A DNA stretch of 64,000 bases, from positions 544,001-608,000 of the forward strand of contig CAVXRD010000004.1 of the NCBI GenBank assembly GCA_963764165.1, in the 5' to 3' direction. This document shows positions 12,986 to 33,075 of the stretch, piece after piece; positions within the stretch are counted from its first letter, which is position 1; every line of letters starts with the position of its first letter. A program made the position numbers and the translations under genes. The notes below the pieces were generated by a model. The model was not told the origin of the DNA and did not search any database. It was given only the letters and a program-made list of their open reading frames with translations. This stretch comes from an uncultured Verrucomicrobiae bacterium. Its GTDB lineage: Bacteria > Verrucomicrobiota > Verrucomicrobiia > Limisphaerales > Palsa-1400.

Positions 12986-13155
12986 AATCAACGATCAGGA
13001 AAAGAGGCCGGAGCTGTTATTCTGCGATGCGAGGAATGTGAATAATGCCTTGCATAAACAATTCGCCATGGCCCGGCAGATCCAGGCTGCGGGCAATGAT
13101 TATGTCATCGACAAACCACGCCATCTGGCACATATACATTGGCGTTCTTACAGCC

Positions 13156-16100
13156 ATGACTAGATATTCTTTTCTTCGATTTTTCCTCGTCTGCCTTGCC
13201 GTCGCCGCGATGGCGCATGAGGTCCGCGCCGATCAAGCCACGTTTTACGTCACGCTCGACACACGCTCCGGCGTCAATGAACTGCTCTGCGTCACCAACA
13301 ATCCTTTTGGCTATGCAGTCGTTGCGTCGACGAATTCTCAGGGAGACGCGATCACCAACGAGCCAGGAGAATTAATCATGAGCTATGCGCCGGATGGCAT
13401 TTTGTACGGAGCAGCCGCCAACGAACTTTTCGCCATCAATCCCTCCACGGCGGCATCCTCAAGCATTCTTGCTTTGACGGGCGAAGCTGCCGCCACGGCG
13501 GCAATGGCTTTTGCCGGTGATGGCACATTATACACGAGCGATGGTTACACACTTTACACCGCCAATCTTGGCAGCGGCGTTTGCGCGCGGGTCAATCCGT
13601 TTTACACGAACGCTCACACCTCCAAGCTCACCACACCGATTTTCAGCCTGGCGATGTCCCCGGGCGGCGCCTTGTACGGAGCCGATACCGCGCTCTATAC
13701 GATCAACCCAGAGAATGCAAAAGCCACCATGGTCGGCCAGTTTTCCATTTTTCCTGGGTTCCAGGCCGAGGCGCTAGCCTTCGGCAGCGATGGAAATCTT
13801 TACATGATTGGAAACGATAATGCATTTTATCTGGTGAGCACCAATGATGCGTCGACGACACTGGAGGGCTCGTTTCCGGGGATTGCAAGCGGACTGGTCA
13901 CCAGCGTGAATCCCGCCCTGCCCGCGGTCACGGCGCAACCCCGGAGCGTGACCGCGGCGCCCGGCAGCAAAGTCGTTTTTTCCGCCACTGCCACTGGCGC
14001 GCCCACGCCCGCTCCCTTCTGGTATTTCAACGGCGCGCCGATCCCTTCCGCCACCAATCTGACGCTGACGCTCACCAACGTCTCCGCGAGCAACGACGGA
14101 AGTTATTACCTCGTGCTGACAAACAGGGCCGGGTCAGTGACCAGCGACGTTGTCACGCTGTCTGTGACGGCAAATCTTGTCAGTACGAATTTCACCTTTC
14201 TGGCCACCAGCGACGCGGGTGGCGTCCATGCCAATTCCATCCTCTCACTCAGCACAAACCCCGTCTCCGAGACGGTCCTTGGCGGATTCGGCACATCCCT
14301 CATCAGCATGAGCTTCGACACCAACGGCGATCTTTACGGCACCGATGGCCAGGTGCTGTACCTGGTAGACACGAATACGTGGGGGTTGATCACGCTTGGC
14401 TCGATAGAATACCTAAACGCGGCACTGGAGGTGGATAGCATCGCCTTTTCGCCCGACAACGTGCTGTATGCGGCTGCGCAAAATGGAACGCAAAGCGGCA
14501 TGTACACCATCGTTCCGACGAACGGCAGCGCCGTGGCCAGCCTCTTAACCAGTTACGCGCAGAGCATCTACATTAGTTCCATTGCCTTCGGGCCTTTGCA
14601 GACATTTTATGGCGGGGAATATGAATTGTATCAGATAAATCCCACAAATGGCCTGGTGGTGACCAAGGGAGTTCCAGTCATCGGCTCAAACGGTGTGACA
14701 TCCATTCAAGGCGACATGAAGGTCGGCCAGGATGGCTATATTTATTTTAACAGCGGATCGTCGCTTTACCGGATGAATCCCTTGACCGCTCGCAACGAGC
14801 CCGTTGCGTCCTACAGTTCGTTGCTCAAGGGGCTGGCATTTTATCCGGCGCCGTTCGACATGACGCCTCCGTCCATTGTGTCGCCCCCGGTCAATGAATC
14901 CGTGGCCAAAGGGAGCGCCGTAACGTTGGCCGTGAGAACCGCTGGCGCCGGGCCGCAAATTTTCCAGTGGCAACGCAACGGGAGTCGGCTCCAGGACACG
15001 AGCCGATTGTTCGGCGCCGACACTGGCACGCTCACGATCAACAACATCCAAACCGCAGACGCGGGCAGCTATACGCTGATCGTCAGCAATACGTTTGGTT
15101 CCGCCAGCGCACCGGTGGCGACTTTGTCCGTTGGGGTTGGCCCAAGCATCACGGCCCAGCCGGCGGGCACGACGCGCGCTACGGAAGGCAAGACGGTGAG
15201 TCTTAGTGTCGCCGCCAAAGGCGCCGCGCCTCTGACCTATCAATGGTACGTCGGCGCCACACGGATTGATGGAGCGAACAGCCGCACTTTGAGTTTCCAA
15301 TCGGATCCTGTCAACGGCGCGTCCAATCTGTATTACCGCGTGCTCGTTGAAAATTCCTACGGTTCAGTGATGAGTTCGCCCGCCGAAGTGACGGTTCTGC
15401 GCGACACGGCGAAGCCAACGGTGGCCATCCAGATTCCCGCGTTGCATGGGCGCACGACAAGCTCCATCATTTCCGGGACAACGTCATCCGATGCGACCCA
15501 AGTCTGGTATTGGGTCACGAATATCAACGCCGGCGCAAAGAGCGTCACCGGCCCGGTCAACGCCACTCAATCAACGCCGAAGATGTGGACGGCCACCGCA
15601 TCACTGCTTCCCGGAACGAACATCCTGGCGGTGCAAAGTGAAAACGCCGCCGGAAATCTCTCCACGATTGCCTCGCGCCAGTTCTTTTACGAAGTCCCAG
15701 CCGCTCTGACGCTCAACAGCTATGGAGGAACAGGCACTTTCACAGGGAAGGCTTCCATAAAAGGTGACGTCGTCCCAGCGGCGGGGGCCGATTTGAATAT
15801 CGGAGAGGGCTATTCGCTTACGGCGAAGGCCTCGCCCGGATATTTGTTTTCCTACTGGTCGGATGATACGAACACAATCACGAAACCAACGATCGATTTC
15901 ATCATGGAGTCTGGCCTTGAATTGACGGCCAATTTCGTGACAAATGAATTTTTTGGATTGTCGGGAACTTATTCCGGCCTGTTCCCCGAGACCAACGCGG
16001 CCACTGAGCAATCGGCGGGCATCATCACGGGACTGAAGATCGGCACTAATGGCGCTTACAGCGGAACACTTGTTTTGAAAGGCGTGGGACACGCGTTCAG

Positions 16101-17079
16101 CGGGTCATTCAACGCCGTGTCATTGCAAGCATCCAACAAGATTACCGTGAGCGGCGGGCCGCTCATCTTGAAAATGACTTTGCTTGCCGGTGAGACGAAC
16201 GAGATCGCCGGCTCGGTTTCAACCGGCGAATGGGACTCGGATTTCCATTTAATAGGGAAGGCGGCCGGCGCACAAACATCCGCTGCCTACACGATGTTGC
16301 TGCAGCCCACGAACACAGCCTTTGGCTGCGGTTACGCCACTGTCACTAATAAGGCGGGCTCGATCACGTTTAGCGGAAAGCTGCCAGACGGCACAGCTTT
16401 CAGTCCGTCCGCGCCTTTGTCGCAAACAGGCTCCATCCCATTCTACGCGAGCCTTTATGGCAACAAGGGGCTGCTTACCGGCTGGCTGAATTTCGATACA
16501 GGAACCTCGGGCGCGGCCGTTCCGAACGGCCAGCTCATCTGGATTCAAAAAGACGGCACGACAACAATCCTTAATGTTGACGGCTCGACGTGGGTCGCGC
16601 CGGCGGCGGGAACTGCCGCCTTGCCCTTCACGAGCGACGCTCCTGGATTATTGGCCATGTCCGGCGGCGGCATTGCGGGGACATTGGATTTCAGCGTCGT
16701 GGACAGCGCCAAGAACGTTTTATCCGCAGTGTCGTCAAGCGATGCGGACGCGACGTTCAGCGGCGCCGTTGCGGCGAAGACGGGATTGGTAACCTTTAAG
16801 GTCTCCATTGGAAAATCTGTGACGACCGCAACCGGGGTTTACTTGCAAAACACGGAGGTCGGCGGCGGGTACTTTACCGGAAACGGAACCTTTGCGCTCG
16901 AGCTGGCAAGAAACACGCCAGACTCAGGCGGCGACGACGGTGTGAGCGCCAGCATGCTCATCAACGAGGCCGCAAGCGGCCCGCCCTCTCCCACGAGGTC
17001 GCCCATATCGCCGGGTTCGCCCCCTGCTCCGCCCGGCCCTCCCGCGCCGCCCATGCATTCTTACAAATCAGACAGATAA
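13156..17079 (+). CDS. Large secreted protein with beta-propeller-like repeats and Ig-like domains
   Basis: Signal peptide MTRYSFLRFFLVCLAVAAM; repeated AF.PDG.LY blades; Ig I-set motifs (QW..NG, DAGSY.LIVSN..GS); Pro-rich tail. Confidence 0.85.
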   Translation: MTRYSFLRFFLVCLAVAAMAHEVRADQATFYVTLDTRSGVNELLCVTNNPFGYAVVASTNSQGDAITNEPGELIMSYAPDGILYGAAANELFAINPSTAASSSILALTGEAAATAAMAFAGDGTLYTSDGYTLYTANLGSGVCARVNPFYTNAHTSKLTTPIFSLAMSPGGALYGADTALYTINPENAKATMVGQFSIFPGFQAEALAFGSDGNLYMIGNDNAFYLVSTNDASTTLEGSFPGIASGLVTSVNPALPAVTAQPRSVTAAPGSKVVFSATATGAPTPAPFWYFNGAPIPSATNLTLTLTNVSASNDGSYYLVLTNRAGSVTSDVVTLSVTANLVSTNFTFLATSDAGGVHANSILSLSTNPVSETVLGGFGTSLISMSFDTNGDLYGTDGQVLYLVDTNTWGLITLGSIEYLNAALEVDSIAFSPDNVLYAAAQNGTQSGMYTIVPTNGSAVASLLTSYAQSIYISSIAFGPLQTFYGGEYELYQINPTNGLVVTKGVPVIGSNGVTSIQGDMKVGQDGYIYFNSGSSLYRMNPLTARNEPVASYSSLLKGLAFYPAPFDMTPPSIVSPPVNESVAKGSAVTLAVRTAGAGPQIFQWQRNGSRLQDTSRLFGADTGTLTINNIQTADAGSYTLIVSNTFGSASAPVATLSVGVGPSITAQPAGTTRATEGKTVSLSVAAKGAAPLTYQWYVGATRIDGANSRTLSFQSDPVNGASNLYYRVLVENSYGSVMSSPAEVTVLRDTAKPTVAIQIPALHGRTTSSIISGTTSSDATQVWYWVTNINAGAKSVTGPVNATQSTPKMWTATASLLPGTNILAVQSENAAGNLSTIASRQFFYEVPAALTLNSYGGTGTFTGKASIKGDVVPAAGADLNIGEGYSLTAKASPGYLFSYWSDDTNTITKPTIDFIMESGLELTANFVTNEFFGLSGTYSGLFPETNAATEQSAGIITGLKIGTNGAYSGTLVLKGVGHAFSGSFNAVSLQASNKITVSGGPLILKMTLLAGETNEIAGSVSTGEWDSDFHLIGKAAGAQTSAAYTMLLQPTNTAFGCGYATVTNKAGSITFSGKLPDGTAFSPSAPLSQTGSIPFYASLYGNKGLLTGWLNFDTGTSGAAVPNGQLIWIQKDGTTTILNVDGSTWVAPAAGTAALPFTSDAPGLLAMSGGGIAGTLDFSVVDSAKNVLSAVSSSDADATFSGAVAAKTGLVTFKVSIGKSVTTATGVYLQNTEVGGGYFTGNGTFALELARNTPDSGGDDGVSASMLINEAASGPPSPTRSPISPGSPPAPPGPPAPPMHSYKSDR

Positions 17080-18546: not shown

Positions 18547-21426
<2,880 letters not shown>

Positions 21427-21530
21427 AAAACGAACGTAAATTGCCCTGAAAGCATTGCAAGCAGCTTTTTCTAGGGATGCCGCCTCTAACGCCCAGATTT
21501 GGCTCTCCCGAAGCTGACGCGAACATTGGA

Positions 21531-21827
21531 AGGTGAAATAGGGTGCAATAGGGTGAAACAGGCTTCCAGGCGAGACCCGTTTGAGGGTGTGTTCGTTGAA
21601 AGTGGCCGAGGCGTCTCGCCTCAGAACGGTCGACACAGCGGCGGGACGACGCCGCCACTTGGGATCCGATGAGAGAGCGCCGAAACGGCGGCGCATGAGC
21701 GCGTCATTGCGCCCTGCCCTTCTATTCTCAATACGCCCTTTCATATAAATGGACGCATTTTGGCCCGAAAGTCGCGGGATGGAAAACCTACCAGAGTGTT
21801 TTCGGCACGGTTTTTTGGAGAAACATT
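21531..21827 (-). repeat. Dispersed element, copy 1 (homologous to 43910-44141)
   Basis: Shares a 25-bp identical core and TTGCACCCTA-type 10-mer repeats with the 43.9 kb copy. Confidence 0.75.
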
Positions 21828-22381
21828 GGGAAAAATTGAATCTGGAACGACCGAACGCAGGAAAAGAGCCTCTTGCTGACAACATCACGCCCTGGACCGT
21901 CCACCCGGACAGGAGAAGAAAGGGGAATCCCCAAAACCTTTACGCCTCTTCGCCCTTGCGTTAGATTGGTTCGCGCTGTTTTCAGCGCCAGCCATTGCTG
22001 GGAAACCTCTTTGGAGAGAGCAAGCCTGGCACCGGCTTAGGTAAAGCGGTAAATGTCCATAATCTCGGAAAGACTGCTACATCGGCTACATCGTTGAGCC
22101 TCAATAAGATAAAGTGCAACATTTAATGCAACAGACTGCAGAATTCCTTCCAATCGGGTCTGGCTGAATTCAATCCTGTGCCTTCCCATCCGCCGATGTT
22201 TTCGCCGCAGTCGCGTGGCCAACGTTCATTCCAGTTATCCAGGACGGGTGTGCCTTGATATCACTAAGGCTGGTATTCGGCGCAACAGATGGAGTTTCCG
22301 CTTTAGTGAAATGAAAGACGATCCCGGTCGAAAAGTTGGATTGACTAAACGTATCAAAATTGATATTCCCATGCAAGCGCT

Positions 22382-22777
22382 ATGGCAGCCACACTGACGA
22401 TCCACGATGAGACCGCAACTGGTCAAAAAACGAATACCTTCACGCTGGATTGCCTCACTGAGCGGATGACAGTGCGCGAATTGATCCGTGCCCGAATTTA
22501 TCAGGAGGTTCAAGAATACAACCAGCGTGAGCCGGAGTATTTTCGCGGCCTTGTAGAGCCGACAAATGCCGAACGCGTCCTCAACGGCTATAAGCTCAAG
22601 GCAAAGCGCAAGATCGACTGGCAAGAGCAACTACTGCGCGCGCTCGATGCTTTTGGCCGAAACGGTTTTTTCGTCTTGGTCGATGACAAGCAAGCCGAAG
22701 ATCTGGAACAGGAATTCGATGTCAAAGTCGACACGGAAGTCAGCTTCGTCAAACTCGTGCCGCTAGTAGGAGGATAA
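22382..22777 (+). CDS. Putative ubiquitin-like (beta-grasp) protein with C-terminal Gly-Gly
   Basis: 131 aa; MTVRELI helix; ends FFVLVDDKQAEDLEQEFDVKVDTEVSFVKLVPLVGG, resembling a ThiS/MoaD C-terminus. Confidence 0.75.
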   Translation: MAATLTIHDETATGQKTNTFTLDCLTERMTVRELIRARIYQEVQEYNQREPEYFRGLVEPTNAERVLNGYKLKAKRKIDWQEQLLRALDAFGRNGFFVLVDDKQAEDLEQEFDVKVDTEVSFVKLVPLVGG

Positions 22778-22793
22778 GAGCAAGGGGGTTCTT

Positions 22794-25483
22794 ATGGCCG
22801 CGTCGGAAGCATCAAAAACCCCGGCCACCACGCCTAACTCCGTGGATCTCCACGCGTTAGTTGACAGTTTGGCAGCACGCTCGGATCGAGGCGACAAACC
22901 CATCGGGATGGGGCGTGATAGATTCCCCATTTTTGCCGATGATCCGCTGGTTGAAGCGCATAAGAAGCTGAACTCGTATTTGAACCAAGTTGCAGGCTCG
23001 CAATCCTGGAGAGCGAAGGCACGCGAATTTCCGGCGGGGGTTTCCTTACTCGGTGGCTCGAAGGAAGAAATGGCGTCTGCTTTCCGGGCGATCTTGGTGC
23101 GTATTCTGTTTTATGCCCGGGTCGAAAAGGGCAGAAACCGGCCCACCGGTTTGCTAGACTTGCGGATCTTCAACATGCTGGCCTCGTTTGCTCGCTCCCA
23201 GGGAGGCAACGCTGAAGCACAGCCGATGAGTCCTGACAATTTTGGCAGCCTGGCTGGAGAACTCCTTCGCAAAGACATTCGGATCTCGGAGAATGATCTC
23301 GTCTTTTGTTTGAAAATTACTTCGGAGCAGAAGGCTGATTCCTACGGCTTCCAGTGTCTCTCAAACGAAGGTGTGCTGCGCGCCGTCGAATTGCATATCG
23401 ATCGGCACGGGCTTAGTCCTGTCCTGCAAGCTGCTCTCACCCAGTGGCGCGAAAATCTTCAGGCATCGGAGCAAGTGTTCACCGCCGGTCGCAAACTCGT
23501 CACGCGACTCAGCTGCCTGCTCGATCTGCAGGTCGCGATTCCAATCGCTTCAGGAGAAGCATGGAGCAATGTCGCGCTCGACGATCTTGACAAAATGGCC
23601 GCCGAAACCAAAGCAAAATGGGGACGCCTGCTTCAGCACTGCGAATTGGCCGAGTCCTCCAAACCAACTCAAAAATGGCTCAAATCCGCCCGCGAGTGCG
23701 TCGAGGACGTCGACGTGATGAATTTAAAAAGTTTGTCCAGCGATGGTTTGATTTGGTTTCGCTCCCGCGCCCGATTCACCGCGAGCCAGCCTACGCCCAC
23801 TCGCCGGATCCTGATCAGCTCATCGGCGATTCCAACTCCGTGGTTCTAAAAGGTCTCGCGTGGGCGTGCTCAGAATTTGAAGACAAGGACGTAGTTCGAG
23901 CGCTCTCGATCCTGGCGCAAGTATGTTTCAAAAAGGTGCGAAATCACGGCGCTCGCTGTCCCCGCATTGGCAACGGAGCACTTTACAGTCTCAGCGCCAT
24001 TTCCCTGCCCGAAGCTGCTGCGGAGCTAACCCGGCTCGACCAGATTGTTAAACTGCCTTCTCTGAAAAAGGCCATCGGCAAATCGCTCGACAAGGCGGCG
24101 GAATCAAGCGGCCAAACCCGCGAAGATTTGCAGGAAGGAGCGATCCCAACTTACGGTTTGGACGCCCAAGGATATCTGAAGCAATCAATAGGCGGCTACA
24201 CTGCGGAGTTCGCTGTCGCTGGACCGGACGCATTTGAACTCCTCTGGCGCAACGCGGATGGGAAAACGCAGAAATCAATTCCCAAAGAATTGAAGGAACA
24301 GCACGCCGCCGAAATCAAAACTCTCCGGCGCACGATCCAGGACATCGAGAAAATGTTGCCAGCGCAATCCCGCCGGGTGGAGCAATTGTTTCTGGCAGAA
24401 CGGGAGTGGCCTTTCGCGCAGTGGCGTGAGCGCTATCTGGATCATCCTCTGATGGGGCTGATCAGTCGGCGGTTGATTTGGCATTTCCGACAAGGCGAAC
24501 GCCAGTCCGCTGGTATCTGGCGGAGTGGCAGTATGGTTGACAACCAAGGTCACATCTTGGATTGGCTTTCAACTGAAACCCGCGTTCGATTGTGGCATCC
24601 TCTCGGTCAGGAAATCGATCAAGTGGCGTGTTGGCGTCAGTGGTTGCAGGAAAGCGAAGTTTCGCAGCCGTTCAAACAGGCCCACCGCGAGATCTACGTT
24701 CTGACTGAGGCTGAGCTGCAAACGAACACATATTCAAACCGTTTTGCGGCGCACATCCTCCGACAGCACCAATTTGCCGCTCTGGCCCAGGAGCGTGGTT
24801 GGAAATATCGCCTGCAAGGCAAATTCGATTCCCACAATGTGCCAACGATCGAACTGCCGAGATGGAATTTAGCCGTTGAACTCTGGCTGGAGACTGATGG
24901 GGGCGATGCTGAAGCATCTGAAATGGGAATCTATCTTCACGCTGGGACGGACCAAGTGCGATTTTGCAGCCCAGATGGCACGCCGCGTCCCTTAAGCGAA
25001 GTTCCCGCCCTTGTTTTCTCTGAATTGATGCGTGACGTCGACTTATTCGTCGGCGTCTGCAGTATCGGCAATGATCCGGCCTGGCAGGACCGGGGCGATG
25101 CGGGCGCTCCTTATGATTATTGGCGGGCTTATGCCTTCGGAGATCTTTCGGCGACAGCCAAGACCAGACGCGAAGTTTTAGAAAAACTGGTGCCTCGTCT
25201 AAAGATCGCCAACAAGTGTGAACTGCAGGAGAAGTTCCTTGTGGTCCAAGGCTCGTTGCGCACCTACAAAATTCATCTTGGCAGCAGCAACATTTTGATG
25301 GCACCCAACGACCAATACTTGTGTATCGTTCCAGATCGAAGCACCAAGGCGCAAACCTTGCACGGCACGTTTCTGCCTTTTGAAGGCGACCAGACGTTGG
25401 CGATCATTCTGAGCAAGGCATTCCTCCTCGCAGACGATGCGAAAATTAAAGATCCGTCAATCATCCGACAATTAGCAAGATGA
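22794..25483 (+). CDS. Large DUF4132-type protein (~896 aa if joined), interrupted by a frameshift near 23712-23729
   Basis: ORFs 22794..23849 and 23618..25483 overlap. Motifs: YLDHPLM..ISRRLIW, VRLWHPL, QPFKQAHREIY, VPALVFSELMRDVDLFV, YKIHLGS, ILSKAFLLADD. Confidence 0.8.
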
Positions 25484-25596
25484 CTATCAGTCCTCACTTT
25501 TTGCACTTTTGCTTTCCTACTTTGATCCGTCATCCGCCATCGTTAAAACTATGACGGACAGGACGGTTCATCTCCAGTTTCTTTGCCTTCCCTTTT

Positions 25597-25702
25597 CTAC
25601 AAACCAATAGTTGCGAGAAAAATTCTGGGCGTCACAATGAGAACGCCTTGGAATTCCTTTATGGCAAGCAGGTCTTTGTCTCCCGCCGGCAACCACTCTC
25701 AC
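25597..25702 (-). pseudogene. PIN-domain toxin remnant with a large internal deletion
   Basis: GTG AGA GTG GTT GCC (MRVVA) directly abuts the C-terminal AGDKDLLAIKEFQGVLIVTPRIFLATIGL*. Confidence 0.7.
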
Positions 25703-25940
25703 CGCGAGCGCGGATCTCGGCGCGCACTTCGTTCACGACGGCTTGGATTTCGTCCATGGTCTTGGGTTCGTCAGGATAGGCCCGCATCTGTTCCACCATT
25801 TGGCGAAAATCTCGCATTGGCTTGTCAAGCTGGACTTCCCGCTCAACCAATTGCGTCAGCTTGCCAGGCTCAAGCAAACCCCTGGCCTTGGCCTCGTCCG
25901 CGACGGAATCCGGCAAATCCAGTTGTATCATAATGCTCAT
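25659..25940 (-). CDS. Putative antitoxin of a PIN-family TA pair
   Basis: IQLDLPDSVADEAKARGLL...TMDEIQAVVNEVRAE; overlaps the start of the PIN remnant. Confidence 0.7.
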   Translation of the reverse strand: MSIMIQLDLPDSVADEAKARGLLEPGKLTQLVEREVQLDKPMRDFRQMVEQMRAYPDEPKTMDEIQAVVNEVRAEIRARGESGCRRETKTCLP

Positions 25941-25995
25941 AACCGTTATTGGCGCTAAACACCGAATACACCGCAAAGTCAATCCGGGCGACTAA

Positions 25996-26991
25996 TCAGA
26001 AAAGACTGCTGACCATCGTTCCTAGTATGCTCAAGGGGCCGGTGTCTTCCAGGCTTTCGGTGGCTTTGTCCAGTTTTTGCAGGGAGAGTTTTGCGCCTTT
26101 GAGGAAACTGTCGTCGTTGATCAATTGGCCGACGGTGCCCTGGCCCTGGTCGATCTTGTGCGTGATTGAATTCAGGTTCGTCATCACGTTGTTCGCGTTC
26201 TTGAAAAGGCTGTCGTCCGTCAGCAATTTGCCTACCGTGCCCTGCCCGTTGCGCGCATCCGTAACCGTTTGATTCACGTTGCTCATCAGCATCTGCGCAT
26301 CACTGGCGACGCCTTTGACCTGGTCCGGCAGGGTCTGCAAATTGCTGATGACGCCTTGGGCGGAGACGTAAAGCGTGTCTTCGTTGATCAGTTTGCCCAC
26401 GGTGCCCTGCCCTTGCGCGATGCGATCCGTAACGGTCTTCATGTTGGCGAGCGAGGCGGTGATGTTGGTGCGGTTGTCCTTGATGAGGTCGGTGATCGGA
26501 CCGAGGAAGGTGTCAATTTTCTCGCCGCTGAAACTCTTGGTCAGATTCTCAACTCCGCTGGCGACAGAATCCAATTTCGTGAATAGCTGGCTCAAATCAG
26601 GCTGTTCGATCGTTTGCAGCATGGCGTTGTCCGCCGCGAGCGGCGAACCGGGCGCGCCGAAATCAATCGCCACGTAATTCTGCGCCATCAATCCGGTGAA
26701 ACTGATGGTGGCTTTGCTGTCGGTGTGGACGTCGGCTTTGCTGCGATTCAAGTTCATCGTCACGCGGACGCTGGCGTTGGTGAGTTCAATTTTATCCACC
26801 CGGCCCACTGTCACGCCCGCCATTTTGACAGGATCGCCGTCCTTCAGGTCCTGCACGTTTTTGAACTGCGCATAGACGTGGTATCCCCGCTCCAGAAATC
26901 CGAAGCTGCCCAGGTATTCGAGAATGATCAGGGCCAGAATAACGGCCAGGGCAAAAAAAAGCCCAAGTTTGCTTTCAACAGAATCTTTCAT
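25996..26991 (-). CDS. mlaD: MCE/MlaD-family lipid-binding subunit with helical repeats
   Basis: N-terminal TM segment; GDPVKMAGVTVGRV; three GQGTVG.L repeats. Confidence 0.9.
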   Translation of the reverse strand: MKDSVESKLGLFFALAVILALIILEYLGSFGFLERGYHVYAQFKNVQDLKDGDPVKMAGVTVGRVDKIELTNASVRVTMNLNRSKADVHTDSKATISFTGLMAQNYVAIDFGAPGSPLAADNAMLQTIEQPDLSQLFTKLDSVASGVENLTKSFSGEKIDTFLGPITDLIKDNRTNITASLANMKTVTDRIAQGQGTVGKLINEDTLYVSAQGVISNLQTLPDQVKGVASDAQMLMSNVNQTVTDARNGQGTVGKLLTDDSLFKNANNVMTNLNSITHKIDQGQGTVGQLINDDSFLKGAKLSLQKLDKATESLEDTGPLSILGTMVSSLF

Positions 26992-26994
26992 ATT

Positions 26995-27762
26995 TCAATG
27001 GGGTCTGGGCGGCGCTAATTCCGCCGTGATAAATTTCTGAATGACCGGGTCCTGATGGCGCTGCACTTCCTCAGGCGTGCCCATGAAAAGGATGCGCCCT
27101 TCATGGATCATCGCGATATGGTGGCCCGTGTTGAAGGCCAGCTCGCGGTCGTGCGTCACCACAATGGAAGTCGCGCCCGTGCGCTCGTTCAATTTCAAAA
27201 TCTCTTCTCCGATGGTCACCGCCATCAGCGGATCCAATTCGGAAGTCGGCTCGTCGAAGAGCACCAACTGCGGCTCGACGACCAGCGCGCGGGCGATGGC
27301 CACGCGCTTCTGCATGCCGCCGGACAACTCTCCAGGCGAACGGTCTTCCAATCCTTTCAACCCAACCGTCTCCAGCGCGCGGGCGACAATGTCGTCGATT
27401 TCGGACGGCTTTTTAACATGGTGTTCCGTGAGATAAAGCCCCACGTTCTCGCCCACCGACAAGGAGGTCAGCAACGCGGCCGATTGGAACACCATTGCCA
27501 TCCGGTACTTGTCGCGAACCGCCCGATCCTGAACGGATTCTCCATCCAGCAGAATTTCGCCCGAGTCAGGATTCATCAAGCCGATGATGTGCTTGAGCAG
27601 CACGCTTTTGCCGCTGCCGCTGGGGCCCATGATGACGAAGCGCTCGCCTTCCTTCACTTTGAACGAAATGCCCTTGAGCACTTCGATCTCGCCAAAATTC
27701 TTGCGCAGATCGCGGACTTCAACCGTGACGCTCTTGGAATTGGATTTCGGGCTGGCGCTCAT
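26995..27762 (-). CDS. mlaF: MlaF-like ABC ATPase
   Basis: GPSGSGKS, LSGGMQKRVAIARAL and FDEPT motifs. Confidence 0.9.
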   Translation of the reverse strand: MSASPKSNSKSVTVEVRDLRKNFGEIEVLKGISFKVKEGERFVIMGPSGSGKSVLLKHIIGLMNPDSGEILLDGESVQDRAVRDKYRMAMVFQSAALLTSLSVGENVGLYLTEHHVKKPSEIDDIVARALETVGLKGLEDRSPGELSGGMQKRVAIARALVVEPQLVLFDEPTSELDPLMAVTIGEEILKLNERTGATSIVVTHDRELAFNTGHHIAMIHEGRILFMGTPEEVQRHQDPVIQKFITAELAPPRPH

Positions 27763-28505
27763 TTTTGGATATATAACAGGAAACGCGTGACGAAATAATC
27801 GAGGATCAGGATGAGCACGATGGAATTGACGACCGCCTTGGTCACGCTGCGCCCAATGCCCCGCGGCCCGCCGCGGGTGATCAACCCCTGGTGGCAGGAA
27901 ACAATGCCGATGGCCAGCGCGAAAATAAAAGATTTGAATAATCCATTGACGACATCACCCATATCAACGCCCTCGCGCAAATTCTCGAAGAAACTGGTGA
28001 AATTGAGCATGACCTTCTGGTTGAACTGGCATACCAGGGCGCCTCCGATCCATCCGACCGGAATCGAGAAAAGCACCAGCACCGGCAGCGAAATCGCGAT
28101 GGCCACCATGCGCGGCAGAACCAGATAACGCACCGGGTCGATATTCATTGTCTTCAACGCGTCGATTTCCTCGTAAACCTGCATGGAGCCAATTTCCGCC
28201 GACATGGCCGAGCCGATGCGCCCAGCCACCAGGATCGCAATCATCACGGGGGCCAGCTCCTTGCACATGGAAAGCCCGATCATTCCGCCGATGACGGAGC
28301 TGATCCCGCGCTTGACCAATTCCGGCCCCGTCTGCAAAGCGAGCACGCCGCCAATAAAAAGCGAGAGGATGCACACCATGAAAAGGCTCGAAAGCCCGAT
28401 TTCAGTGAGCTGCTCAAACACCTTGGCCCGATGCCGCCAGGCGTCAGGAACAGCGCGCAGGGTCTGCCAGAACAGGACTAGAATCTCTCCAATATTGTGA
28501 AACAT
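27759..28505 (-). CDS. mlaE: MlaE-family ABC permease
   Basis: ELAPV..AILVAGRIGSAMSAEIGSM..YEEIDAL; ATG overlaps the upstream stop (TGATG). Confidence 0.9.
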   Translation of the reverse strand: MFHNIGEILVLFWQTLRAVPDAWRHRAKVFEQLTEIGLSSLFMVCILSLFIGGVLALQTGPELVKRGISSVIGGMIGLSMCKELAPVMIAILVAGRIGSAMSAEIGSMQVYEEIDALKTMNIDPVRYLVLPRMVAIAISLPVLVLFSIPVGWIGGALVCQFNQKVMLNFTSFFENLREGVDMGDVVNGLFKSFIFALAIGIVSCHQGLITRGGPRGIGRSVTKAVVNSIVLILILDYFVTRFLLYIQK

Positions 28506-29941
28506 CACGGTTTTGCGGCGGAACGGCCAAAGCGGCCAAAACGCCAATGTGTGCCGTCCGGCGTGGATTCATACTGAAAAAGTCCGAAGAAGAGCGAGGC
28601 TTTTTTTGTACTGTTTCTAGTTTCGCGGCGGTAAAAATTCCACAACAGCGACTGGCAGGTGGCGCCGGTGCGGGCGTTTTTCTCGTTATGCCAGAGGGTG
28701 TAAACCGGGGAATATTCGCGCGGAATGGTTCGGTTATTCGGGAAAAGCGGATCAAGAATGGCCAGAATTTGCAACCGCCGGTTGCCATCGAGCTCGCGGT
28801 CGTAACTATAAAACGGCCAGAAATCGACGCGCCGCTTGAAATCGTGCGACTGCGTGTTCCGCTCCACCGTGTCCGAGTAAAGAAAATACAGGACGCGGCT
28901 GCGGTGGCGGTCCAGCGGCGCCGCCTGCAGGCGGTTGTATTTGTACAATAGAAATCCGTAAAAATCGCTTTGCAGCCCGTTGTGCTCTGCGTGGCTGTAG
29001 AACGGAAACACACGGTTGATGGTCTTGCTGCCCCGCGCGCGCACAAAAAGCGGCCAGAGAAAATCGTGCTCGTCATAGCCCTGCCCCCGATCATGCACAA
29101 CGTTGAACCCCAGCGGAAATCCGTAGGAAAGCTGGTCGCGCAACGGCGAGTGCGATTGGCTGTAAAGCGGGATGAGCGTAAAGCTGGTGACGGGATTGGT
29201 CGTGCCCAAGCCGTCGTAATTCCGAAAGCCAAACGGCCACATGACGAAGCGCTTGTCGTAGCCGCCAATCGTCTCAAGTTCATCGACCGTGTTCGTGAAA
29301 GTCCGCGGCAGCCTCTGTTCGATCCCGTAGAAAGGCCAGATTTGCCACCCTTCCAGGTTGTTCCCATGCCGGACATCGTAAAACGGGTACATATAATTAT
29401 ACGTGACAACGTCCTTCTTCTCGGTTCTCGACCATAGCGGAAACATGACAAACTTGATATCATTGCGGAACATTCGATTCTCGAGATGGCCGTAAAACGG
29501 AAAGACCGCCGTGTAACCGTCATTGGTGGCCGTTGATCTCTGATGAAAATAAAACGGGAAAACGGTCGTGTGGTGGAACGTATTTGATTGCGCGGTGTCT
29601 CCGCCGGAAATGCTGAACACCTGCGCGATCTGCCAGCGATATTCCGGTCCGAACCGCCGATAATTGATTACAGGATACAAGAAATCCCATTCGCTCCAGC
29701 CGACGTCCGGCGTCACTGTGCGGCAATAAAAAGGCGGCAGCGCCCATTGCCGCTGCGCGCCAATGGTCTGCTCATAAAAGAACGGGCCAGCCATGTCTTC
29801 GCGCAGGCCGGATTCCAGCGTCAAACGATATTTGGAAAACGCGGGGCCAATATTGATCTCATCCCCATGCGCGCGGAAAGCTCCGACGCAGGCGGAGGCG
29901 GCGACAAAACAGGCTGCTAGAAATTGTTCGAGTTTAACCAT
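28505..29941 (-). CDS. Exported hypothetical protein with periodic aromatic (F/W)PFY repeats
   Basis: Signal-peptide-like MVKLEQFLAACFVAASAC; more than 10 VFPFY/IWPFY-like motifs; coupled to mlaE. Confidence 0.75.
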   Translation of the reverse strand: MVKLEQFLAACFVAASACVGAFRAHGDEINIGPAFSKYRLTLESGLREDMAGPFFYEQTIGAQRQWALPPFYCRTVTPDVGWSEWDFLYPVINYRRFGPEYRWQIAQVFSISGGDTAQSNTFHHTTVFPFYFHQRSTATNDGYTAVFPFYGHLENRMFRNDIKFVMFPLWSRTEKKDVVTYNYMYPFYDVRHGNNLEGWQIWPFYGIEQRLPRTFTNTVDELETIGGYDKRFVMWPFGFRNYDGLGTTNPVTSFTLIPLYSQSHSPLRDQLSYGFPLGFNVVHDRGQGYDEHDFLWPLFVRARGSKTINRVFPFYSHAEHNGLQSDFYGFLLYKYNRLQAAPLDRHRSRVLYFLYSDTVERNTQSHDFKRRVDFWPFYSYDRELDGNRRLQILAILDPLFPNNRTIPREYSPVYTLWHNEKNARTGATCQSLLWNFYRRETRNSTKKASLFFGLFQYESTPDGTHWRFGRFGRSAAKP

Positions 29942-29952
29942 GAACGCAACGA

Positions 29953-32900
29953 TCAAGGCCTCGAGGCCTCTTCTTCCGAGGAACGCCCCCGATTGAGCCC
30001 CTTGGTTACGTTCCAGCCGAAATCGCTCAAAATGCTGATCATCGCGGGCACCAATGTGAGGCCCGCGATCATGCAAGCGCCGATTCCCAGCGACATCACC
30101 AAGCCAAGACTCCAGAGACCCTGATGTTTGCCGAGCATGAGGCAGCCGAAACCCGTCAAGGCTGTCAATCCCGAAACTAGCACGGCCTTGCCGGTGCTCT
30201 TGCCCAGAATACTGGCTTTTTCCTCTTCCGCCACCCGATTCAAAATATGAATGCCGTTGGTCACACCAATGCCGATGACAAGAGGCAGGGTCATAATGTT
30301 CGCCGGATTGAACGGCACGCCCAGCCATCCCATGAATCCAAGCGTCCAAGCTGATCCGATCACCACCGGCAGCAGCGCCAGCAGCACGCAGACCAACGAA
30401 CGGAAATGGACATAAACCATGATGGCGATCACAATCAGCGAGATAATCGCGGCCTGCTGATAACTGACTTTCAACAGCGTGGTGTATTCATAGAGCTGCA
30501 CGGGCATGCCGGTGACGCGATCCGCTTCTGGCCCAAGCGCGCCACGCAGTTGCGCAATGAACTTCTCCTGCACGTCATGCTTCCACACGTCATCCTTGGG
30601 AAAGACTTGCACCAGGTACTTTCCGGTCTTGCCAACAAATCGCGAATACAAGGCGGGCGGCAAATCCTCCGGGCGCAAATCGCCGCTGGCATCCTGCTTT
30701 TGGATGGCTTCAAACGTCGTGCGAATATCCGCAAACAGCGCCTCCTGATAGACGCGCAGGCGCCGGGGAATCTCAGGGTCCCCGCTCAGCATCTTCACGC
30801 GAAACTCACTGATGGAATTGATGAGATTGGTCACCTCGGCGGCCAGCTCGGGGCGCTCTTTGGCAGTCTGGTTGTAGACATTGTAAAAATAGCCCATCGT
30901 TCCGTAAAGAGTCAGGCTCAACGCGTGCAGGGCGACTGCGTTGGTATCGGCCGGCGCGAATTTCAAATCAGCGATTCCACCTTTGATTTGCCGCACCAGC
31001 TTCAACTCATCAGCTTGATTCTTCGTCATCAAATCAAACATCGCCACCCCGCGGTCACTGCCGTCGACACTTGCAACCGACGAGAGGTTGGTCACGACGT
31101 GCTCGTATTCAGCCGCCTGCTTAAGCGAATCCGCCACGATCGCCGCATACAGGAGCGATTGCCCAGGCTGCACCGCGATCACACAGGGGTAAGCGTCCTG
31201 CAGCAGCATTTGATTCAATCGAATTTCATCCGCTCCCGCCGGTTTTGACGCCAAAAGAGCCTTGGTCTTGGGGCCAAGCTGAACGGATTGAAAACGCTCG
31301 GGGGTGTAAATCAGCGGACCATCGATGATTTGGTTAAAATCCTTGACCAAGGCGGATTCCAGTTCATCCGATTCCGAATTGGTGCCGTGATAGGCTTCCA
31401 GCGCCGCCCGGGCCTGAACATCCAGGTGCGACGCGATGAAGGCGGAAACCGGATCACGCTTTTCCTTCAAATCGTCCGCCAGCACGGGAAGGTTGGTAAT
31501 GTCATCGGTCGAGAATGTTGTGGCGCCGGAGAACAGCAGCTTCTTTTCGTAATCCACCGCCGCCAGGCCTTTGCTCTGCATGTTCAGGAGGTTGTAGTCG
31601 AACGAAACCTTTCCGAATTGAGTGGCCCCGATGAGGCAAGCGACGATGGTCCCACCCACCACCCAGCGCGGGCGCGCCAGCCAGGCGTTCTCAAGGCGAT
31701 TGCGGCCCTCGGACGAGAGCCCGACGGCGTGATCGATGGCATTTTGGCGCCCCCTTAACAGCAGCGCGGGAAGCATCGTGAGCATGGGAATCAAACAGAG
31801 CGCCAGGCCCCCGCCGGAAATAATTCCCATTTCCTTGATGCCGCGAAAATCGGTAAAGCCCATCGCCAAAAACGCCACTGCCGTCGTCAACGCGCCTGTC
31901 ACGATCCCCTGCCCTGTGAAGACGAGCGCCCGTTCGACAGCTTCCCGCGGAGACGCTTTCTTTCGCACTTCCTCCTCGAATCGAGTGATGAAATGGATGC
32001 CGAAATCAATGGCAAGGCCAATCAGAATCGGCGCAAACGTCACCGTCAGAATATTCAAATGGCCGACTGCCAGCGTGCCAAACCCCATGCTGTAACCCAA
32101 TCCCACGACGAGGCACACCATCGCCTTGAGCGGGCGGCCGGTTTCGCGGTAGGCGTAAATGAAAATCAAGGAACAGATCACCAGCGAGACAAGCGTGGCC
32201 TCCGTGGCGTCGCGCTCGGATTGCACCATCTGGTCGTAATCCAGCACGGGCGCTCCCGTGACGCCAACATTCAATCCGGGAACTTCGCTGGCGGTTTCGT
32301 TGACAAGCTGCCGCATGCGGCGGACAGATTCTTCCACCACCTTGCCGTTGCGCGGGCGGGCGGTGACCAGAAAGATGCGCCCATTGGCCAGCGTGATGTA
32401 CATGCGCCGCTGCGCTTCCTCGCCTGCTCCAAAGAGCGCCGTGACTCCCGGTGAAACGGGCGTCCCCGGACGATTCAAACTGTCCGTCGCCTCGTCGATG
32501 ATCCGCTGCAGCGCGGGCAGAGCGCCGATGAGGGCGTTGTTGGCGGCATTTTCCTCCTGCTTGGCGGTGCGAATCTGGCGATTGACCATTCCGAAAAACG
32601 AATCCAGATTGCTGGCGGTCGTGAATTGTTGGATGAACGGCGGGTACTTCTCCAGCTTCTCGCGCATCTGCTCCAAATCGGCTTTGGGAACAAACAGCAG
32701 CGCTTTCCTGCCAAGCGACGGCAAATCTCCCTTGTAAAAAATGTCCGTGAAGAGATTGGTTTCCGGCTGCAGCTTGGCGGCGAGGCGTTCGACAAATTGC
32801 CGGTTGCGGTCCAAGTCCTCGCTTTCCACCACCACCGCCAATTCGTCCTCGCCGGGAAATTCCTCACGGAATTTCAAGTAGATTTCGTGCGACTTCTGCC

Positions 32901-33075
32901 CTCCGCCGACGAGGTTGTCCTGGTTCATGTCGAACTTCAGGAACAGCGCGGTGTAAAGGCAGCAGAAAGCGAAGATAACCAATTGCGGCAGGATGAACCA
33001 CTTCGGGTGCTTGCACACCAGCCGCGCCACGGCGCGGAGGAACCCCGCGAAAAGTGTATGGCCGGCGGGACTCAC
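29953..33075 (-). CDS. MMPL/RND transporter (HpnN-like)
   Basis: Two MMPL repeats with IGLAIDFGIH and IGIGVTNGIH motifs; 1040 aa. Confidence 0.9.
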   Translation of the reverse strand: MSPAGHTLFAGFLRAVARLVCKHPKWFILPQLVIFAFCCLYTALFLKFDMNQDNLVGGGQKSHEIYLKFREEFPGEDELAVVVESEDLDRNRQFVERLAAKLQPETNLFTDIFYKGDLPSLGRKALLFVPKADLEQMREKLEKYPPFIQQFTTASNLDSFFGMVNRQIRTAKQEENAANNALIGALPALQRIIDEATDSLNRPGTPVSPGVTALFGAGEEAQRRMYITLANGRIFLVTARPRNGKVVEESVRRMRQLVNETASEVPGLNVGVTGAPVLDYDQMVQSERDATEATLVSLVICSLIFIYAYRETGRPLKAMVCLVVGLGYSMGFGTLAVGHLNILTVTFAPILIGLAIDFGIHFITRFEEEVRKKASPREAVERALVFTGQGIVTGALTTAVAFLAMGFTDFRGIKEMGIISGGGLALCLIPMLTMLPALLLRGRQNAIDHAVGLSSEGRNRLENAWLARPRWVVGGTIVACLIGATQFGKVSFDYNLLNMQSKGLAAVDYEKKLLFSGATTFSTDDITNLPVLADDLKEKRDPVSAFIASHLDVQARAALEAYHGTNSESDELESALVKDFNQIIDGPLIYTPERFQSVQLGPKTKALLASKPAGADEIRLNQMLLQDAYPCVIAVQPGQSLLYAAIVADSLKQAAEYEHVVTNLSSVASVDGSDRGVAMFDLMTKNQADELKLVRQIKGGIADLKFAPADTNAVALHALSLTLYGTMGYFYNVYNQTAKERPELAAEVTNLINSISEFRVKMLSGDPEIPRRLRVYQEALFADIRTTFEAIQKQDASGDLRPEDLPPALYSRFVGKTGKYLVQVFPKDDVWKHDVQEKFIAQLRGALGPEADRVTGMPVQLYEYTTLLKVSYQQAAIISLIVIAIMVYVHFRSLVCVLLALLPVVIGSAWTLGFMGWLGVPFNPANIMTLPLVIGIGVTNGIHILNRVAEEEKASILGKSTGKAVLVSGLTALTGFGCLMLGKHQGLWSLGLVMSLGIGACMIAGLTLVPAMISILSDFGWNVTKGLNRGRSSEEEASRP

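Follow-up and report, generated by a model that had tools for sequence, protein, structure and literature searches.

The window analyzed here, a stretch of 64,000 nucleotides (nt) from the genome of an uncultured Verrucomicrobiae bacterium, contains two adjacent genes, one encoding a small ubiquitin-like protein (Ubl) and the other a large protein with the domains DUF4132 and DUF7737 (Table 1). Together they form a conserved module, the likely role of which is protein tagging. As described in an earlier note made from the letters of this DNA, the Ubl open reading frame (ORF) of 131 amino acids (aa) ends in FVKLVPLVGG and a stop codon, and the ATG of the large gene follows 16 nt downstream. Both genes are single-copy in the genome.

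The large gene is present as two ORFs that overlap in different frames. The note had read it as a DUF4132-like gene of about 896 aa; both DUF4132 and DUF7737 were indeed found in it, but no intact ORF of that length exists, and 896 aa is obtained only if a missing base is counted in. The homologous proteins are encoded by single ORFs of about 800-1150 aa, and they locate the break near positions 23714-23717. Programmed −1 frameshifting at the heptamer T TTA AAA was considered the poorer explanation: homologues match the motif D-x-F in the downstream frame already before the heptamer, so an upstream loss of a single base fits better. As assembled, the large gene is frameshifted; the window copy is therefore probably nonfunctional, unless slippage bypasses the break or the break stems from a sequencing error. 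A check of the assembly found frame changes at two of the 34 places matched by proteins of relatives, and it does not separate sequencing errors from mutations. One of these places is the large gene and the other lies in a second conserved gene (C2:1586229-1587388).

Table 1. Positions in the window of the module, its predicted domains, and the adjacent genes.
Feature	Position	Strand	Basis
Ubl gene, 131 aa; predicted MoaD/Urm1/SAMP-type beta-grasp, free LVGG tail, insertion of about 30 aa	22382-22777	+	ORF, model, fold matches
Large gene, 5' piece (351 aa; variable N-terminal region)	22794-23849	+	Homologous frame ends near 23714; stop 23849
Frameshift, one base short compared with homologues near 23714-23717	23714-23730	+	Slippery-type heptamer T TTA AAA follows, 23722-23728
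Large gene, 3' piece (621-aa ORF; homologous from about residue 34)	23618-25483	+	−1 frame
DUF4132 (PF13569), ends in QPFKQxxRE motif region	24260-24802	+	Family match E 1e-49; invariant residues
Predicted TBP-like alpha/beta domain; invariant E366, W395, R472, D475; holds non-conserved C481	24713-25075	+	Model; 2pww_A match
DUF7737 (PF24879), predicted UBC/E2-like; H553 (25274-25276), S556, candidate catalytic C569 (25322-25324)	25148-25480	+	Family match E 2e-41; model
Decayed toxin-antitoxin-like pair (107-aa ORF and out-of-frame PIN-like remnant), outside the module	25560-25982	-	By eye
gcvP-like ORF upstream of the pair	18547-21888	-	By eye from translation

The small protein and its linkage to the large gene

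Search for homologues of the Ubl yielded 2498 sequences, and clustering at 50% identity gave 1400 clusters. Verrucomicrobiota are the source of the closest homologues. The 120 closest sequences all end in LVGG. Among 150 cluster representatives 133 end in Gly-Gly (GG), and the remaining 17 are unaligned at the last residue of the query. The terminal GG is also present in 82 of 82 genome loci, and it is lost in a distant subfamily. With this many homologues and the tail retained in them, the observation is not due to chance. Neither the Ubl nor the N-terminal piece of the large gene matched a Pfam or NCBIfam family. PADLOC gave no match better than E 0.01, and its only match in the scans of these two, Cas5a (E 0.01), was taken as chance. 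PDB sequence searches with Ubl and large-protein queries found nothing useful, and the Atlas gave only unnamed clusters for the Ubl.

The AlphaFold2 model of the Ubl (predicted local distance difference test, pLDDT, 88) has a disordered GG tail, one additional helix, and, approximately at residues 50-79, an insertion of about 30 residues that includes a hairpin. In the VIA fold search the best match was human MOCS2A (5mpo_B; Z 8.2, root-mean-square deviation (rmsd) 3.5, 80 aligned residues), followed by SNRNP25-type, ubiquitin, ISG15, and SAMP1 (4hro) chains. Nearly all of the top 50 rows were ubiquitin-like folds by title, and Foldseek concurred at weak E-values. The 131-aa protein is thus predicted to have a beta-grasp fold, and its C-terminal GG is invariant within its subfamily, both as the reading in the note requires.

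Gene linkage was studied in 79 genome loci, the best of 515 confirmed, from Verrucomicrobiota, Armatimonadota, Gemmatimonadota, Planctomycetota, Bacteroidota, Actinomycetota, cyanobacteria, and other phyla. The DUF4132-DUF7737 gene was situated within 300 bp of the Ubl in 71 loci and within 2.5 kb in three more; the five loci without it included three at contig edges and two true orphans. The expected linkage to DUF4132 genes is tight, and the pair of genes is real and widespread. No third conserved gene was detected across 82 loci, the apparent one being an out-of-frame shadow of the large gene. Also moa, thi, cys, and rhodanese genes were not conserved neighbours in these loci, in agreement with the note, which had seen no cofactor-biosynthesis genes nearby.

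The distribution of the pair is patchy. The Ubl was found in 4 of 401 genomes of its own phylum with a single-sequence query, and DUF7737 exceeded the cut-off in 8 genomes of an Actinomycetota sample of 251 and in 9 of a Bacteroidota sample of 301. All eight DUF7737 genomes of the Actinomycetota sample also contained the Ubl, adjacent in seven and fragmented in one. Five further genomes of this sample had GG-less Ubl relatives and no DUF7737 match. Such actinobacterial relatives, ending for example in LERSVVASGS, are solitary (loci L098, L099, L101, and L102, and also L097). The INPHARED phage genomes gave no match, and IMG/VR gave seven long-type loci and none for the short-type or DUF7737-only alignments.

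In some loci (L061, L006, L007, and L016) two to five large-gene paralogues with different N-termini were arranged in tandem around one Ubl, L061 having five. Decay of the large gene was seen elsewhere (L011, L014, L005, L058, and L109): it was absent beside two Verrucomicrobiota Ubls, present as a remnant only, split by an inserted element, or internally deleted. One long-type protein (L155:3579-9215) appeared by eye to have an additional WGR-like domain C-terminal of DUF7737.

The large protein and its predicted E2-like domain

The large-protein model was constructed of residues 176-621 of the 621-aa ORF (pLDDT 87), the numbering of which is followed here, and includes a PH-like start, a TBP-like domain, and DUF7737 as the last domain. 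The TBP-like domain matched 2pww_A (Z 7.5, rmsd 3.2, 99 aligned residues). DUF7737 (model residues 327-446) was covered by 13 of the 50 VIA rows, with Z-scores of 4.0-4.6 that lie within the background range of the tool. Ten of these 13 rows were by title ubiquitin-conjugating (E2) enzymes or E2 complexes. The best was Ube2J2 (Z 4.6, rmsd 3.3, 84 aligned residues), and the others included a bacterial complex of activating enzyme (E1), E2, and Ubl (8tyz_C, Z 4.4), Atg7-Atg10, UBE2G2, UBE2S, UbcH5b, Ubc9, Ubc13-Mms2, and UBE2E1. The remaining three were FANCL, an FTS complex, and a Mediator chain, structures which also hold UBC-like domains. The resemblance of DUF7737 to E2 had been noted by eye before the fold search. 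Foldseek did not find any match for the large-protein model at E<=0.001 in PDB or BFVD, nor did the Atlas give a usable match for DUF7737. No ligase or adenylation fold was present among the structure matches of the large protein.

In E2 enzymes the catalytic Cys comes after a beta-meander and a hairpin and before two helices, and Cys569 has the same position in the secondary structure of the model. Of the two cysteines suggested as reactive in the note, this one, in the motif YLCIVP, was invariant in an alignment of 72 short-type rows, while C481 in GVCSIGNDP was rejected as a catalytic site, its position being Ala in the family consensus. H553, S556, the FLPF motif, and the charged set Q350-E358/R472/D475 were conserved without exception in 135 of 135 proteins, irrespective of the nucleophile, and H553 was kept in all 179 proteins scored, even where A, N, P, W, or F occupies the nucleophile site. 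Sequence profiles do not connect DUF7737 with any E2, and with Z-scores at background level the fold assignment depends on topology and on how uniform the matches are. DUF7737 is probably a hidden E2 (UBC-like) domain, and the statement that no E2 is in view is then probably wrong.

The co-occurrence of Cys569 and the GG tail was scored from 215 loci, which included 209 ORFs matching the core profiles, and 179 of these could be scored. Nine ORFs were skipped for motif or length (six of them, ending in a visible DUF7737, show the Cys), and the other unscored ones were short or cut by locus ends. A Ubl was present within 1.5 kb of 144 scored proteins, reduced to 114 pairs by collapsing at 90% identity. 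Both Cys and GG were present in 82 of the pairs and neither in 29; two had GG without Cys, and one, at a broken locus, had Cys without GG. The Cys-less proteins have S, A, N, P, W, F, V, or L at the position, and their Ubls end in G-S-Y-W, G-R-L-W, G-L-Y-F, G-A, and the like, with the first Gly retained. A clean switch from Cys to Ser, seen in six of six Bacteroidota loci, was not upheld, as the wider sampling revealed A, N, P, W, F, V, and L too, and the change appears to be mainly a loss of Cys. In a tree of 52 of the 113 rows (all 44 long-type or divergent and 8 of 69 short-type ones), constructed with the nucleophile masked, Cys changed four times (3-4 in bootstrap) and the capped-tail forms made up one clade. 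Cys and GG go together, but as judged from only one to four independent events. For the Acetobacter and Burkholderia proteins with a Cys-less version of DUF7737, no Ubl was detected in the fetched flanks.

Of 178 loci with a Ubl, three (L057, L079, and L117) contain a MoeB/ThiF-like gene that overlaps the large gene at its stop codon. Of the 178 loci, 141 are at least 8 kb long and some repeat one place. Two of the three E1-bearing loci are from related Chitinophagaceae and the third from another Bacteroidota genome; their MoeB/ThiF-like genes keep Cys at the catalytic position and have no moa or thi neighbours. No JAB gene was found in any of the 178 loci (phmmer with own-genome queries, E<=1e-4). 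The genome of the window itself has four ThiF-family matches. Since MoeB/ThiF-like genes overlap the large gene in three operons, an ordinary E1, normally provided in trans, is favoured. About 170 kb away from the pair (region C4:736186-737326; L086 and L088), a 570-aa ORF has a ThiF domain at its C-terminus, looks E2-like in its N-terminal part, and lies beside a JAB/Cap3-like ORF; the two constitute a Cap2/Cap3-type pair.

In complex prediction the Ubl and the core of the large protein scored 0.52, compared with 0.00 for the best of three controls. The runs agreed in at least 75% of the contacts, and the partner pLDDT was at least 75. The mark for a complex was attained by 116 of the 157 solved pairs and by 2 of the 215 mismatched ones. 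Only 18 of the 157 solved pairs attained it with a score of 0.60 or less, as did both mismatches, which makes the support weak. Binding between the two proteins is thus only weakly predicted.

Related systems and the Deinococcus radiodurans orthologues

In the SAMP/UbaA, TtuB/TtuC, and Urm1 systems, a MoaD-like Ubl ending in GG is conjugated without an E2, using a general MoeB/ThiF-type E1 encoded elsewhere. The present module differs from these in co-encoding a dedicated partner that is predicted to be E2-like. DUF4132 and the domain following it are shared with the YehI/MolR-type proteins of E. coli (E 6e-10 against the core profile), but YehI ends before DUF7737 and adjoins a MoxR/VWA cluster.

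Similar to the present module with its predicted E2-like domain, the Bil (BilABCD) and Bub operons combine a Ubl with a terminal Gly and an E2-fold protein without any E3, and the bacterial structure 8tyz_C is among the DUF7737 fold matches; those operons, however, carry their own E1 and peptidase (bioRxiv 2024.11.21.623953). The E2-like domain of the present module is also placed at the end of a DUF4132 protein of 800-1700 aa, and its Ubl is MoaD/SAMP-like with an insertion. In the favoured interpretation the module would work in analogy to Bil/Bub conjugation, yet it is not a member of that group because its operon lacks an E1 and a peptidase. With E2-CBASS the module has in common a protein of E2 fold (predicted in the module) whose operon is without an E1, a His located 14-16 residues N-terminal of the Cys, and a partner in which a Gly is conserved at the C-terminus or close to it (bioRxiv 2022.05.25.493364, PMC12948482). 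In E2-CBASS, by contrast, the tag is a CD-NTase and the E2 a small free protein (same sources). The His of the present module outlives the loss of the Cys. As the operon has no third conserved gene, the CD-NTase substrate of E2-CBASS has no counterpart in it.

Distant members of the module were found in D. radiodurans (WP_227086044 and the 1626-aa WP_010889426, corresponding to DR_A0165 (SEP068184) and DR_A0166). This pair is intact and has both GG and Cys; its partner protein is long-type, 1626 aa compared with about 896 aa at the window locus. DR_A0165 is a Ubl of 134 aa ending in LTALAGG (53 bits to Ubl profile A1), located 2 nt before DR_A0166 (157 bits to profile A4), which has the motif GFLCIVP. 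The operon is strongly upregulated on DdrO depletion, and DRA0166 protein increases with mitomycin C in an IrrE-dependent manner (bioRxiv 2021.07.07.451423). After irradiation the peak area of DR_A0165 is approximately fourfold higher, its deletion raises antioxidant capacity, and the protein has been predicted to resemble 5MPO and SAMP1 (PMC9650054). No RDRM motif was found in that study, which disagrees with bioRxiv 2021.07.07.451423 on DdrO control. These experimental data, from Deinococcus only, point to DNA-damage and oxidative stress responses. The small protein has been called Deinococcus-specific and treated in an 83-aa version, and an E2-like domain or conjugation is unmentioned in the accessible parts of the two accounts (PMC9650054; bioRxiv 2021.07.07.451423). 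No account of the Ubl-DUF4132/DUF7737 operon as a tagging system was found in the literature searched, although survey supplements or subscription papers may list the operon.

Proposed mechanism, alternatives, and flanking genes

In the favoured mechanism, given about an even chance of being correct, the Ubl would be adenylated by a MoeB/ThiF-type E1 borrowed in trans, as such an enzyme is usually encoded elsewhere in the genome. From there the Ubl would move on, in thioester linkage, to Cys569 in the predicted E2-like DUF7737 that ends the large protein, and would likely be transferred by an isopeptide bond to lysines of targets selected by the variable N-terminal region. The module may have a stress or conflict role, the note having suggested defence: it is scattered in distribution, often decayed, and found with tandem paralogues that vary at the N-terminus, features that would fit a conflict system. 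The suggestion of the note that the large protein binds, activates, or receives the Ubl has thereby gained a specific candidate receiver, the predicted E2-like domain with Cys569. Approximately one quarter of the non-redundant pairs lack both Cys and GG, however, and the window copy is frameshifted.

Several results weigh against this mechanism. Canonical eukaryotic E2s have an HPN motif before the Cys; DUF7737 is without it and has HLGSxNI in its place, the Asn of which is not kept in long-type proteins. The background-range E2 matches come from a 446-residue model, the placement of Cys569 is by secondary structure, and the DUF7737 profile found nothing among PDB sequences at E<=10, that is, no sequence-level match to E2. 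An E1 is present in only three of the 178 loci and a JAB in none. Joint loss of Cys and GG amounts to one independent pair on starred branches (four on all branches) with none opposite, and the sign test was not significant. Furthermore, in 31 of the 114 pairs the Cys is replaced by S, A, N, P, W, F, or V while the operon persists, which means that some function of the module does not depend on the Cys. In D. radiodurans, DR_A0166 is absent from the published co-immunoprecipitation and proteome tables for DR_A0165 (PMC9650054), the bait of which was the 83-aa annotation, 51 residues shorter than the 134-aa gene.

It is unlikely, but in keeping with part of the data, that the module is non-covalent. 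The Ubl would then attach by its tail to the large protein and serve it as cofactor, inhibitor, or adaptor, and Cys and GG would be a dispensable refinement. A clade of 25 rows (support 100/99) with capped tails (G-S/T/R/L-x-W/F) and no Cys has kept the operon, four further pairs end in GA, the residues invariant in 135 of 135 proteins are kept regardless of the nucleophile, and the complex prediction gave a weak pass. GG-stop and Cys are nevertheless strictly kept in the large short-type subfamily, including the window locus, and three operons carry an E1. Rather improbable is also conjugation without E1, in which the large protein itself would activate the Ubl in one of two ways. It might cleave the tail behind the invariant G130 by means of a Cys/His or Ser/His pair and retain the acyl-enzyme, in the manner of the E2-CBASS E2, or the invariant charged residues of DUF4132 and the TBP-like domain might make up an adenylation site of a new type. 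An E1 is missing from 175 of the 178 loci, and all tail types among the paired Ubls retain G130, the broken locus L122 excepted. The invariant H553 is 16 residues before C569, compared with 14 between H87 and C101 of the Serratia E2 (bioRxiv 2022.05.25.493364), and in 15 of the 114 pairs a capped tail occurs together with Ser in place of the Cys, Bub E2s using Ser/His (bioRxiv 2024.11.21.623953). But the His is retained also in proteins without a Cys nucleophile and is therefore not linked to the Cys, the structure matches include no ligase or adenylation fold, and an ordinary relay is favoured by the three loci that have an E1 gene in cis.

Very unlikely is that the Ubl is a sulfur carrier, thiocarboxylated like MoaD, ThiS, or CysO, with the large protein using the sulfur in a small-molecule or RNA reaction. 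MOCS2A was the best fold match, ThiS was weakly matched by 3 of 116 Ubl-family members (best E 0.063), the E1s in cis are MoeB/ThiF-like, and modA and thi genes are located 2-7 kb from the D. radiodurans pair. However, the 82 loci have no conserved moa, thi, cys, or rhodanese neighbour, the Cys domain of the partner matches E2s and not sulfurtransferases, and tandem paralogues with variable N-termini, such as the five near one Ubl, do not suit a cofactor enzyme. A more far-reaching version of E1-free tagging, considered quite improbable, would make the large protein a single-polypeptide ubiquitination machine with an N-terminal target receptor, a new Ubl-activating site of invariant DUF4132/TBP-like residues, and a C-terminal E2. 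It would act without E1, E3, or peptidase and be switched on by DNA damage, derived lineages working via Ser or capped tails.

If the favoured relay through a borrowed E1 and Cys569 is true, a widespread two-gene architecture, with an E2-like domain fused to a large variable receptor, would be added to bacterial Ubl conjugation, and DUF7737 and part of DUF4132 would obtain a function. D. radiodurans has an intact copy with GG and Cys, both products are expressed and damage-induced, and a deletion strain has been published; the natural Cys-less and capped versions provide controls.

The pair is situated between a gcvP-like ORF and a decayed toxin-antitoxin locus, as stated in the note, the latter recognized by eye as an antitoxin-like ORF and a PIN-like remnant. 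This flank had no family match in Pfam, NCBIfam, or PADLOC and is not conserved as a neighbour. By eye from translations, the reverse strand at 25996-33075 of the window contains MlaD/MlaF/MlaE-like ABC genes followed by an MMPL/HpnN-like ORF. On the forward strand, positions 13045-17079 encode a secreted-looking protein of 1344 aa, likewise judged by eye, in which beta-propeller-like and Ig-like segments recur and the tail is rich in Pro.

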